A stretch of DNA of 64,000 nt from an uncultured Aliarcobacter sp. GTDB taxonomy: Bacteria; Campylobacterota; Campylobacteria; Campylobacterales; Arcobacteraceae. The notes under the pieces were generated by a model. That model was given only the letters and a program-made list of their open reading frames with translations. It did not search any database and was not told the DNA's origin. Position numbers and translations under genes: made by a program. The stretch lies in the NCBI GenBank assembly GCA_963664305.2, contig CAXXLV010000001.1:352001-416000 (forward strand), read 5' to 3'. Positions 41,336-45,222 of the stretch are shown in pieces; positions within the stretch are counted from its first letter, which is position 1, and each line of letters starts with the position of its first letter.

Positions 41336-41692
41336 CTATTTTTTTAACTCTTTAATTCTTGCAGCTTTACCTTTTAATCCTCTTAAGAAGTGAAGTTTAG
41401 CTCTTCTTACTCTTCCTTTTCTTACAACTTCAAAAGTTTTTAAAGACTCAGAGTATAATGGGAAAATTCTTTCTACACCAATTGAATTTGCACCGATTTT
41501 TCTAACTGTGAAAGTAGCATCAACACCATTTCCACTTCTAGCAATAACAATACCTTCAAAAAGCTGAATTCTTTTTTTCTCACCTTCTTTAATTTCAACA
41601 CCAAGTCTTACAGTATCTCCTGCTTTGAACTGTGGAATTTGTTTTTCTGCAATTTGCGCTGCTTCAAAGCTTGCAATGTATCTATTTTTCAT
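41336..41692 (-). CDS. rplS: 50S ribosomal protein L19; start ATG 41692
   Basis: [33 protein letters not shown] and [17 protein letters not shown]. Confidence 0.97.
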
Positions 41693-41709
41693 TGTATTTC
41701 CCTTTGGCG

Positions 41710-41748
41710 AAAGTGCCCGCATTTGCAACTTGCGGGGTATCACACTTT
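41710..41748 (-). ncRNA. Candidate structured cis-regulatory RNA between trmD and rplS
   Basis: GC-rich island in an AT-rich genome; minus strand AAAGUG-ugauac-CCCGCA-aguugcaaa-UGCGGG-CACUUU, a two-helix hairpin. Confidence 0.5.
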
Positions 41749-42437
41749 TATTTAAATTTTTTGTTTGTAACTAAACCTGGTCTAAAGTATTTTGTTTTGC
41801 AAATAGCCAGATTGGTTTTTAGGTCGGCAATTTTACTATGGTTTCCCTTTAAAAATTCTTTAACTACACTTAAATTTTGAAAATTTTCAGGTTTTGTAAA
41901 AGATGGTGCTTCAAGCATATTATTTTCATAGCTTTCAACATCCAAAGAATCAGCATTTCCAAGTACATTATCAACATTTCTAGAAATTGCATCTGCCATT
42001 ACTGTTGAAGCTAATTCTCCTCCTGTTAAAATATAATCACCAATACTAAATACTTCATTTGCATATTTTTCAATAACTCTTTCATCAATTCCTTCATATC
42101 TTCCACTTACAAATACAATATTTTTTTTCTTTGCTAATCTTTTTGCATCATTTTGTTTAAATGGTTTTGCAGCTGCTAGTGGAAATATAATATAGGCATC
42201 TTCATTTTTCTTTTTTATTTCATCTAAACAATCAAATAATGGTTGACAAAAAAGAAGCATACCTGCTCCTCCTCCTACAATTTGGTCATCAACCTTTTTA
42301 TGTTTATTAGTTGTAAAATCTCTTGGATTATAAAACTCGTAAGATATAAAATTTGATTCAACTGCTCTTTTTAAAATAGAATCTTGAAAATATGGTTCTA
42401 TAAGATTTGGGAAAAGTGTTACAAATGTAAATTTCAA
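41748..42437 (-). CDS. trmD: tRNA (guanine-N1)-methyltransferase TrmD (TTG start)
   Basis: VTLFP, VDD...[16 protein letters not shown] and [11 protein letters not shown]. Confidence 0.95.
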
Positions 42438-42487
42438 AATAAAATCTAGCCTTTTTTAGTTGAAATATTAACATATTTATTTTTATT

Positions 42488-42493
42488 TATAAT
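42488..42493 (+). promoter_or_regulatory. Putative -10 box driving the leader ORF-metE transcript
   Basis: TATAAT about 50 nt upstream of the leader ORF start; no comparable -10 seen between the leader ORF and metE. Confidence 0.45.
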
Positions 42494-42544
42494 TAAGCAT
42501 TTATTCTTTACACTTCCCACCTTATTTAAATAAAAGGTTATTAC

Positions 42545-42889
42545 TTGAAATTACTAAACGGTTTTGGGAAAAAGTATTTTACACTTTCTTCAATACAAGC
42601 ACACTCTGTTGCACCAAAATTACATAGTATTGTTACATCTAGTAAAAATTATTTAAATAAAAAATTATCGATATCTTCAGAATGTGATGAAGAGGAAGAA
42701 TCACCTCCAAATCTTCAAGAAAATTTATCATTACCTATTTTATTAAATTCGAAACCTTGTCACTGTGATTGTTTTTTTAAAAGAAGAACTGCACTAGCAG
42801 TAAGTCTATTTAAATTTATTCCAAGATGTCCATTTTATTGCACATTTTTTGCTTTTAGAAGAACGGGTGTTCATCCTCCTATTACTTAA
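42545..42889 (+). CDS. Cys-rich leader ORF upstream of metE; candidate ribosome-arrest regulatory peptide
   Basis: AAAGG RBS 7 nt before TTG; 114 open codons in very AT-rich DNA; CHCDC and CPFYC motifs; C-terminal RRTGVHPPIT; 3' end complementary to the metE RBS and start region. Confidence 0.7.
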   Translation: MKLLNGFGKKYFTLSSIQAHSVAPKLHSIVTSSKNYLNKKLSISSECDEEEESPPNLQENLSLPILLNSKPCHCDCFFKRRTALAVSLFKFIPRCPFYCTFFAFRRTGVHPPIT

Positions 42890-42951
42890 TTAATCTAACA
42901 ACTTAACAAAAATATTTAAACAATAAATTATTAATAATCAAAGGATTAATT

Positions 42952-45222
42952 ATGCAAAAAAATTATGTAATAGGATTTCCAAGAATTGGAGAAAAAAGAG
43001 AACTTAAAAAAGTTTTAGAAAAATATTGGTCAAAACAAACTGATTTTAATGAAGTAAAATTTGTAGCAGAAAGTTTGAAAAAAAGACATTGGAATTATCA
43101 AAGAGAAGCAAAGATAGATTTTATCTCTTCAAATGATTTTTCATATTATGACAATATGTTAGATACATCTATATTATTAGGTGCTATTCCAAAAAGATTT
43201 GAAAACTTAAAAAATGAAGAACTATATTTTGCAATGGCAAGAGGAAATGACTCTTGTGTCGCAATGGAAATGACTAAATGGTTTAACACAAACTACCATT
43301 ATATTGTTCCTGAAATTTCAAAAGACACAATATTTAGATTAAATAGTAAAAAAGTAATTGAAGAGTACAAAGAAGCACTTGATTTAGGAATTAAAACAAA
43401 AATAAATCTAATTGGAGCAATAACATATCTTGGACTTTCAAAAAGTGTAGATAATAGTGATATTTTTTTACACATTAATAATGTAGTTGAAGTATATAAA
43501 GAATTATTGTTAGAAATTTCAAAACTAGATGATGAAATTATCGTTCAATTTGATGAACCATTATTTGTAAAAGATTTAGATACAAAAATTTTATCTTTAA
43601 TCAAACCAGTTTATGATGCCCTAGCTTTGGTTGCATCAAATATAAAAATAGTTGTAACAACATATTTTGAACATTCAAATGAAGCAACAAAAATATTAGT
43701 TAATACTCCAATTTGGGCATTAGGTTTAGATTTTATTCATGGAAATAAAAATCTTGAAGTTTTAGAACTTATCAAAAACTCAAATAAAATTTTAATTGCA
43801 GGAGTAATTGATGGAAGAAATATTTGGAAAAGTAATTTTCAAGATAAAGTAGAACTACTTGAAAAAATCTCAAAAACTATAAATAAAGAAAATATTATAG
43901 TTGGAACTTCTTGCTCACTTTTACATGTTCCATTTACTTTAAATTATGAAGAAAAATTAGATAAAGAGATAAAATCTTGGTTAGCATTTGCAAATGAGAA
44001 GTTAAAAGAGTTATCACTTGTATCTAAACAATTTTTTGACTTCAAACTAAATTTAGAAGAGTTATCTACAATAAAAAGAAATATTGAAGATAATAATCAA
44101 AGAAAGATTTCTTCAAAAATTCACAATATTAAAATTCAAGATGAAATAAAAAATCTTAAAAATTTTGAAAGAGTAGATAAGTTTCAAAATAGAATAAAAG
44201 TTCAAAGAGAATTTTTCAAATATGATTTTTTAACAACTACAACTATTGGTTCATTCCCTCAAACTCCAGAGATTAGAGAAAATAGAAAACAATATAAAGT
44301 AAATGCCATTTCAAAAGAGCAATATGAAAATGAAATCAAAAAATATATTGACGATTGTGTAGCTTTTCAAGATGAAATTGGACTTGATGTTCTAGTTCAT
44401 GGAGAACCTGAAAGAAATGATATGGTTGAATATTTTGGAGAATTAATGGATGGATTTGTATTTACACAAAATGCCTGGGTTCAATCTTATGGTAGTCGTT
44501 GTGTAAAACCACCTTTAATTTATGGTGATGTTTCAAGACCAAATCCAATGACTGTTGAGTGGATAAAATATGCTCAAAGTAAAACTAAAAAAGTTATGAA
44601 AGGTATGTTAACAGGACCAGTTACTATTTTAAATTGGTCATTTGTAAGAGATGATATATCAAGAAATGAAGTTGCAAAGCAAATTGCATTTGCTATAAAC
44701 AAAGAAGTAGATGATTTACAAAATGCTGGAATAAAAATGATTCAAGTTGATGAAGCAGCATTTAAAGAAGGTTATCCTTTAAGAGCTGAAAACATTAAAG
44801 CTTATGAAAATTGGGCAGTTGATAATTTCAAATTAAGTGTTAGTTGTGCAAAAGCAGACACTCAAATTCATACACACATGTGTTATAGCGAATTTAATGA
44901 CATTATTAAAACTATTGAAGCTATGGATGCTGATGTTATTTCAATCGAAACTGCACGTAGTGGAAATAGACTTTTAAAAATCTTTAAAGAAGTAGCTTAC
45001 AAACAAGAAATTGGTCCTGGAATTTATGATATTCATAGTCCTAGAGTTCCAAGTGTTGAAGAGATGGTGAAACAAATTGAAGCTTTAATCGAAGTTTTAC
45101 CAAAAGAACAATTATGGATAAACCCTGATTGTGGATTAAAAACTAGAAAATGGCCAGAAGTAAAACAAAGTCTAAAAAATATGGTTGAAGCAGTGAAAAT
45201 TGTTAAAGAAAAAAATTACTAG
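42952..45222 (+). CDS. metE: Cobalamin-independent methionine synthase
   Basis: GFPRIGEKRELK, EMTKWFNTNYHY, TTTIGSFPQT, HGEPERNDMVEYF, Zn ligands HTHMC and NPDCGLKTR. Confidence 0.97.
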   Translation: MQKNYVIGFPRIGEKRELKKVLEKYWSKQTDFNEVKFVAESLKKRHWNYQREAKIDFISSNDFSYYDNMLDTSILLGAIPKRFENLKNEELYFAMARGNDSCVAMEMTKWFNTNYHYIVPEISKDTIFRLNSKKVIEEYKEALDLGIKTKINLIGAITYLGLSKSVDNSDIFLHINNVVEVYKELLLEISKLDDEIIVQFDEPLFVKDLDTKILSLIKPVYDALALVASNIKIVVTTYFEHSNEATKILVNTPIWALGLDFIHGNKNLEVLELIKNSNKILIAGVIDGRNIWKSNFQDKVELLEKISKTINKENIIVGTSCSLLHVPFTLNYEEKLDKEIKSWLAFANEKLKELSLVSKQFFDFKLNLEELSTIKRNIEDNNQRKISSKIHNIKIQDEIKNLKNFERVDKFQNRIKVQREFFKYDFLTTTTIGSFPQTPEIRENRKQYKVNAISKEQYENEIKKYIDDCVAFQDEIGLDVLVHGEPERNDMVEYFGELMDGFVFTQNAWVQSYGSRCVKPPLIYGDVSRPNPMTVEWIKYAQSKTKKVMKGMLTGPVTILNWSFVRDDISRNEVAKQIAFAINKEVDDLQNAGIKMIQVDEAAFKEGYPLRAENIKAYENWAVDNFKLSVSCAKADTQIHTHMCYSEFNDIIKTIEAMDADVISIETARSGNRLLKIFKEVAYKQEIGPGIYDIHSPRVPSVEEMVKQIEALIEVLPKEQLWINPDCGLKTRKWPEVKQSLKNMVEAVKIVKEKNY

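Follow-up and report, generated by a model that had tools for sequence, protein, structure and literature searches.

A conserved leader peptide upstream of metE in Campylobacterota, a candidate ribosome-stalling switch linked to vitamin B12

The 64,000-nucleotide stretch of DNA analysed here, called the window, comes from an uncultured Aliarcobacter sp. (assembly GCA_963664305.2, contig CAXXLV010000001.1, positions 352,001 to 416,000) and contains an open reading frame (ORF) of 114 amino acids, the leader (42545..42889, plus strand), upstream of metE (42952..45222, plus strand), which encodes the cobalamin-independent methionine synthase (PF08267 and PF01717). The leader is conserved and under protein-level selection, and its 3' end can base-pair with the ribosome-binding site (RBS) of metE inside a ribosome footprint, as in the Shine-Dalgarno (SD)-sequestering arrest peptides encoded by upstream ORFs. 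From comparisons of sequences we infer, with somewhat more confidence than doubt, that the leader is a ribosome-stalling switch for metE, in which a stall at the terminal Pro-Pro pair would turn metE on and vitamin B12 sufficiency would end the stall.

The leader is a conserved protein-coding frame

The leader starts with TTG, ends in RRTGVHPPIT and follows a likely RBS (AAAGG, 42533..42538, plus strand); each of the 19 loci displayed has AGG or AGGA ahead of its TTG codon. The leader has matches in 21 of 24 genomes of the same genus, all with open frames. The ratio of nonsynonymous to synonymous polymorphism (pN/pS) in 58 leaders is 0.28 in an N-terminal motif and 0.22 in the C-terminal module, and 0.84 in the linker. 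Residues G6, Y11, P111 and P112 are invariant across 67 diverse homologues, and the leader is almost certainly translated. The possibility that the frame only shadows a gene on the opposite strand, such as rimM, was rejected, as there is no long minus-strand ORF at 42440-42990. Among the contigs assembled from RNA runs of relatives, two join the end of the leader to the start of metE, although such contigs are uninformative on transcript, strand and level.

The family is unnamed. A profile search returned 939 protein clusters, and the named clusters among the best 120 of these are all hypothetical or uncharacterized. The leader in the window matched no Pfam family at E<=1 and no NCBIfam family, and gave no usable Atlas match, no match to the Protein Data Bank at E<=0.001 and no plasmid match, while DUF2946 was not found in 67 family members (E<=0.01). 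The AlphaFold model is mostly one long helix (predicted local distance difference test score, pLDDT, 77.7; predicted template modelling score, pTM, 0.43). No description of the family was found in the literature covered, which excluded most subscription papers and included the supplements of related papers in part. The three short supplementary files of PMC9973294 contain no match to the leader system, though cluster lists given as figures may not be present as text, and the part of the PMC12992588 supplements that was covered contains no match to Arcobacter, Sulfurimonas, btuB or methionine synthase.

The leader tail pairs and covaries with the metE ribosome-binding site

A preliminary description of this DNA had proposed that the leader 3' end sequesters the metE start in two helices, from which a ribosome at the Pro-Pro codons would free it. 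The tail of the leader (42877..42896, plus strand), which would lie beneath the footprint of that ribosome, contains the 5' arms of both. In helix (i), positions 42887-42896, TAATTAATCT, pair with 42943-42952, GGATTAATTA, in the region of the metE SD (AAGGA) and ATG (42941..42954, plus strand), with nine Watson-Crick pairs and one G-U pair. In helix (ii), positions 42877-42885 pair with 42967-42975 at nine of nine positions, extending to 14 of 15 over metE codons 4-8 (42961..42975, plus strand). The letters of both helices were checked and agree with the description. The two had also been suggested to form one nested stem, and while both are complementary as described, helix (i) and the 14/15 extension of helix (ii) share 42887-42891 and are mutually exclusive. 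The Pro-Pro codons do spell CCTCCT as described, but the suggested anti-SD role was not borne out, since the predicted probability of pairing with the SD is 0.0 here.

In the predicted ensemble, helix (ii) has a probability of about 1.0 and helix (i) of 0.15-0.25, being rivalled by a 5-bp extension of helix (ii) and by a local hairpin, TAATC/GATTA (42935-39/42944-48, spanning 42935..42948, plus strand; probability about 0.7), which covers part of the SD. The 141-nt segment as a whole has a minimum free energy of -18.9 kcal/mol with a z-score of -1.25, and 27 of 200 shuffled sequences fold equally well, so that global stability provides no evidence for the switch. Placing a ribosome footprint on the leader lowers the energy predicted for opening the metE initiation region, which is 6.4 kcal/mol when the free RNA begins 21 nt ahead of the end of Pro-Pro and 3.8 kcal/mol when it begins only 12 nt after it, but the local hairpin still pairs the GA of the SD. 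The preliminary description had cautioned that AT-rich DNA gives some complementarity by chance. In a comparison with 190 adjacent gene pairs of the same genome (genes called by a simple script), none equals the tail against the RBS and first 10 metE codons (-16.7 kcal/mol), whereas 13 equal the pairing of the tail with just the RBS (-8.7 kcal/mol).

Across the metE loci, leader and metE lie anywhere between a few nucleotides and about 300 nt apart, yet the tail past Pro-Pro keeps its complementarity to the SD region through changed letters, for example CATTCTTTAT/ATAAAGAATG in locus L013 and CCTTATTAA/TTAATAAGG in locus L012. When partners were swapped among 62 de-duplicated loci, cognate pairs averaged -6.32 kcal/mol against -4.67 kcal/mol for non-cognate pairs (permutation p 5e-5), with p-values of 0.34-0.98 in five permutation controls, and the signal was limited to, and peaked in, windows whose first base lies about -5 to +5 nt from the end of Pro-Pro. 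A test on phylogenetically independent pairs from the MetE tree covered 85 of 89 loci in 42 pairs, four loci being dropped for short sequence or gap. The own partner was better in 24, worse in 7 and tied in 7 of the 38 informative pairs (p 0.0017; six controls not significant), and better in 20 against 5 for the first 15 nt of the tail (p 0.002). In 45 of 51 loci with short gaps, opening the RBS costs more with the native tail than with shuffled ones, and with a ribosome at Pro-Pro the mean opening energy is predicted to fall from 7.0 to 3.9 kcal/mol over 80 loci, nine loci with very long or short gaps being excluded. Against the null set of gene pairs from the genome of the window, 40 of the 89 metE loci fall under the 10th percentile.

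The covariation that the preliminary description had asked to be sought among relatives is thus present for the pairing of the tail with the SD region but not for helix (ii), for which only 12 of 85 loci have energies of -8 kcal/mol or better and the swap test on these 85 loci showed no covariation (15 vs 11, p 0.28). CCTCCT, one of many spellings of Pro-Pro, occurs in only 18 of the 85 loci. Helix (ii) and CCTCCT were therefore rejected as the conserved switch on account of their rarity, the lack of covariation and the failure of CCTCCT to pair with the SD. The element that is conserved and covaries resembles helix (i) and joins the tail to the SD region, helix (ii) and CCTCCT being lineage-specific extras. 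It is quite likely that the tail serves as an anti-RBS switch.

Several of the loci show other features. The long gaps in L015, L017, L019, L002 and L013 contain several related palindromic hairpins that resemble a mobile repeat family; they self-fold and hold tail and RBS near each other. In L008 (G013:C1, past about base 2650 of the locus), the metE frame breaks off about 220 codons in, where a transposase-like ORF lies on the opposite strand.

Conserved motifs at fixed distances in the leader

The N-terminal motif, GFGKxYFxLxxIxA (residues 6-19; 42560..42601, plus strand), is a candidate sensor that is common to the leaders of btuB-like and cbiM genes and to the N-terminus of some BtuB-like receptors. 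Its conservation is not that of an RNA motif, an explanation that was rejected because the codons differ synonymously over 104 copies. In the BtuB-like fusions it takes the position of the signal peptide and, on a comparison of hydropathy only, is more hydrophobic (2.15-2.63) than in the leader in the window (0.70).

An internal Pro-Pro (residues 54-55; 42704..42709, plus strand) follows an acidic run at the end of the first module; it is not invariant, and 74 of 101 long leaders have it, at 37-47 residues past the tyrosine of the N-terminal motif. Spacing and alignment single out a CHCDC motif (residues 72-76; 42758..42772, plus strand) 39 residues upstream of the terminal Pro-Pro, and the CxC-to-PP distance is 39 residues in 74 and 36 residues in 12 of 86 leaders, with C74 nearly invariant in an alignment of diverse homologues. 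The terminal Pro-Pro itself (P111-P112; 42875..42880, plus strand) is the predicted stall site, and only four of 1456 called genes of the same genome have Pro-Pro among their last eight residues. In all 30 short leaders, the distance from the tyrosine to Pro-Pro is 37-39 residues. The ribosome exit tunnel contains about 30-35 residues. The leader in the window looks like two sensor-PP modules in tandem, and arrest at the terminal Pro-Pro is likely.

A family of leaders upstream of metE and B12-related genes

A broad profile of the leader matched 151 of 301 Campylobacterota genomes. The family has four architectures: a full leader upstream of metE or of a BtuB-like receptor; a short leader, with the N-terminal motif followed by xPP, upstream of BtuB-like genes or cbiM-cbiK-cbiL operons; the N-terminal motif at the beginning of a BtuB-like receptor itself; and the CHC-PP module by itself upstream of metE. 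The genes downstream of 169 family matches, many of them at loci hand-picked from match lists, are metE (107), BtuB-like (51), cbiM (8), a binding protein (1) and unassigned (2), and nine further matches had no called downstream gene. No zinc-uptake gene, no copper gene and no secA, secDF or yidC was found among the 169. TonB-B12 is the best match for most of the BtuB-like receptors tested, while a siderophore-receptor model is the best match for two of the fusions with the N-terminal motif. Genes in the neighbourhood of family members include BtuF, CobT, CbiK, CbiL, CobB and CbiM.

The genome of the window encodes a second leader with the N-terminal motif (L147, G000:C2:667105-667281, minus strand), which is 59 residues long and lies upstream of a btuB-btuF-btuD-btuC-cobB-like run. 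It is conserved in 37 of 40 genomes of the genus, ends with a conserved YSTNN-type tail and may use another arrest motif.

Two kinds of neighbouring protein were observed besides these. A membrane-like protein of about 190 residues downstream of receptors with the N-terminal motif (L088:4106-4717, L089:4283-4840, L135, L136) is a candidate inner-membrane B12 transporter, with no Pfam match in the two copies scanned. An NMT1/SsuA-like binding protein after a short leader (L093:828-1958) is a candidate importer of cobamide precursors.

Association with metH and scarcity of cobalamin riboswitches

Of 93 genomes with metH, 86 carry the N-terminal motif, among them that of the window, compared to one of 208 genomes without metH, and this single match is weak (E 0.003), lies in an unrelated ORF and looks spurious. 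Within groups, motif and metH occur together in 13 of 14 genomes of one genus and one of three in another family, and in genome G297, which has no metH, the motif is decayed. Frequently metH adjoins the locus of a receptor that bears the motif, in several instances divergently (L090, L135; by coordinates also G103, G107, G151 and G216).

The cobalamin riboswitch RF00174 was found in one of 150 genomes, namely that of the window, where it lies away from the window upstream of a cobN-like ORF (L146, G000:C2:150748-150950) and was possibly acquired from elsewhere. An Rfam scan of the window gave only rRNA and tRNA, cobalamin riboswitch families had no match in region 42300-43100 at E<=10, and 20 leader loci gave no match to any Rfam family. 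The targets of this riboswitch are the same set as those of the leader family, that is, metE, btuB-type uptake genes and cbi/cob synthesis genes; unlike there, no riboswitch is present at the leader loci, where the translated peptide appears to carry the control. One such riboswitch is reported at metE of Mycobacterium tuberculosis (PMC11260477). Riboswitches are reported to be nearly absent in Campylobacter jejuni and its relatives (PMC3847290). For the leader family, a signal linked to B12 is probable.

A model for the proposed leader switch

By default, a ribosome translating the leader would stall at the terminal Pro-Pro with the tail held inside it, and would thereby melt the pairing between tail and RBS and turn metE on. 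By analogy with RAPP-type peptides, arrest would occur with the first proline in the P-site. The sensor would lie about 37-39 residues upstream of Pro-Pro, just beyond the exit tunnel, and would be the N-terminal motif in short leaders and CHCxC in the second module. In B12-replete cells, engagement of the sensor would pull on the chain and release the stall, as copper does for CruR, whereupon the pairing would re-form and metE would be turned off; the receptor may be, at a guess, holo-MetH or the export machinery. The direction of the switch, with the stall as the on state, was chosen because of the RNA geometry and because B12 represses metE and B12 genes in other bacteria.

Several observations weigh against this model. 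With respect to the RNA, helix (i) has a predicted probability of about 0.2 in the genome of the window, the local hairpin partly covers the SD even under the footprint, and the 141-nt fold is not significantly stable. Weak pairing is common among the metE loci, only 23 of 89 of which reach p<=0.05 against shuffles; a control stretch 60-35 nt before Pro-Pro likewise beats shuffles (z -0.81), though without covariation; and when the Pro-Pro codons and the ATG are left out, the sign test on independent pairs becomes marginal (20 vs 10, p 0.049). For btuB and cbiM leaders, a swap test with 35 hand-set starts reached significance, as did the coding control for it. With respect to the peptide, the 146 leaders end in VHPP in 70 cases, QAPP in two and RAPP in one, and VHPP, TSPP and ISPP are not RAPP-type motifs, while the btuB leader of the same genome and its homologues in the genus lack Pro-Pro. 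Every BtuB-like assignment is below curated cut-offs, and 17 of the 51 BtuB-like genes group with a receptor best matched by the siderophore-receptor model. The association of the N-terminal motif with metH is phylogenetically non-independent and may merely mirror the presence of btuB, and metE leaders without the motif are found both in genomes with metH (L021, L145, L219-L221) and in a family without it (match in 62 of 124 genomes).

Alternative explanations

One alternative, which we regard as unlikely, retains the stall-and-unmask switch and replaces B12 with a shortage of methionine or S-adenosylmethionine as the signal, for example through slow decoding of proline codons by tRNA-Pro undermethylated by TrmD; the B12 genes would then be targets because B12 feeds MetH. 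It would accommodate the metE leaders that consist of CHC-PP only and persist in a family without metH (L126-L130). In the window, trmD (41748..42437, minus strand, PF01746) is divergent from the leader, and loss of 1-methylguanosine at position 37 (m1G37) causes ribosome stalling (PMC8384417). However, trmD is a neighbour of the leader only in Arcobacteraceae-like loci, with different upstream genes in other families, and the leader in the window has no internal methionine codon. No other gene of the methionine pathway comes first at the leader loci retrieved, many of which were hand-chosen. Conservation of the N-terminal motif, its fixed distance from Pro-Pro and its occurrence on receptors without a leader would also be left unexplained.

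A sensor of metal ions, cobalt or zinc, in the manner of CutF and CruR is less likely still. CHCxC would then bind metal at the tunnel exit and set the stall. Consistent with this, MetE is a zinc-dependent enzyme and cbiM imports cobalt, and the 39 residues from CHCxC to Pro-Pro can be compared to the 45 residues from CXXC to RAPP in CruR (PMC9426467). Against it stand the seven of seven classed cbiM leaders and the 41 of 52 leaders classed as 'other' that lack CxC, as well as the absence of zinc-uptake targets and of a DUF2946 match.

We give slightly less credence again to the view in which the leader acts as a small conserved protein or a SecM-like secretion monitor, whose translation opens metE by coupling and is free of control by a ligand, with the pairing merely blocking initiation independent of the leader. 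The signal-peptide position and the higher hydropathy of the N-terminal motif in the BtuB-like fusions are in line with such a role, and a ribosome terminating two codons past Pro-Pro would cover the same tail. This view leaves unexplained the invariant Pro-Pro, the fixed spacings, the restriction to genes of the B12 regulon and the link to metH. Chance complementarity in AT-rich DNA was already disfavoured and is highly improbable despite the z-score of the fold, the RBS-only pairings of equal strength in the same genome and the lack of covariation in helix (ii), as the advantage of cognate over swapped partners is limited to the tail and kept in independent pairs, with flat controls.

Comparison with known arrest peptides and leaders

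In mifM-yidC2, a stall near the 3' end of the leader melts a stem that sequesters the SD. The proposed B12-responsive stalling switch resembles this system, and likewise SecM-secA and the RQH/RAPP family (PMC10987492), in that respect. These systems monitor Sec or YidC and precede secA, secDF or yidC, which the leader family does not, and VHPP does not fit the consensus (R/Q/H)-(A/G/D)-(P/G/S)-(P/G) of the RAPP/RQH motifs (PMC10987492).

CutF-cutO of Rhodobacter capsulatus (10.1101/2022.11.11.516240) is alike in its proline-rich C-terminus and in an RNA stem over the downstream SD, which stalling opens, and its signal-like N-terminus and Cys motif may have counterparts in the leader, although CutF is, unlike the leader family, a member of DUF2946. 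In CruR-bfrG of Bordetella pertussis (PMC9426467), also of DUF2946, the upstream ORF has a Cys motif at a fixed distance from a C-terminal PP arrest motif, an arrangement to which that of the leader may be comparable. CruR heads an operon with a TonB receptor, and its ligand relieves the arrest and turns the downstream gene off, as proposed for the leader family. However, CruR has CXXC and RAPP, responds to copper and works through Rho-dependent termination, whereas the leader family has no match to DUF2946, ends in VHPP or xSPP, bears a distinct N-terminal motif together with a covarying anti-RBS, and lies upstream of B12-related genes. The CHCDC of the leader contains CxxxC, one of the two forms (CXXC or CxxxC) of the Cys motif in DUF2946 proteins, but its distance from Pro-Pro is 39 residues compared to 45 in CruR, and the short family members lack it. 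The downstream genes metE, BtuB-like and cbiM, of a cobalt transporter family, are not copper genes, in contrast to those of CutF and CruR.

MetL, LeuL and TrpL of Campylobacter jejuni (PMC3847290) are likewise leader ORFs before amino acid biosynthesis genes in the same phylum, and are proposed attenuators of 20-35 residues with runs of the sensed amino acid. The leader in the window differs in its length, the lack of a methionine run and its position before metE instead of metB or metY. On the best reading, the leader switch would work like the arrest-peptide switches CutF and CruR, would fall outside both DUF2946 and the RAPP/RQH consensus, and would run the B12 regulon of Campylobacterota.

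Surroundings of the leader in the window

A promoter scan of the locus gave four sites compared to 5.7 expected. TATAAT at 42488-42493 and TACACT at 42509-42514, upstream of the leader, are candidate -10 boxes, and the TACACT word is also present before the leader in close relatives. A terminator-like hairpin lies within the leader (42788-42801, both strands), and on the minus strand a run of T comes after it. The usual operon order places rimM by trmD-rplS; in the window, trmD-rplS (41336-42437) has no rimM frame directly upstream.

Implications

A broader and more tentative proposal, to which we give a little less than even weight, is that Campylobacterota have swapped the cobalamin riboswitch for a family of nascent-peptide sensors, in which one N-terminal motif, sensed on its way out of the ribosome, would control metE, B12 uptake and B12 synthesis together. 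The motif would act via the Pro-Pro stall and the anti-RBS, or would itself serve directly as signal peptide of a B12 receptor, and B12 status would be reported possibly via holo-MetH. This would explain how metE and B12 genes are regulated in a phylum that has MetH yet almost no cobalamin riboswitch. It would provide a marker for B12 transporters in Campylobacterota, the N-terminal motif, and would put a name to a leader family of at least 939 protein clusters that are called hypothetical wherever a name was given. If true, the signals that arrest peptides read would come to include a vitamin cofactor.

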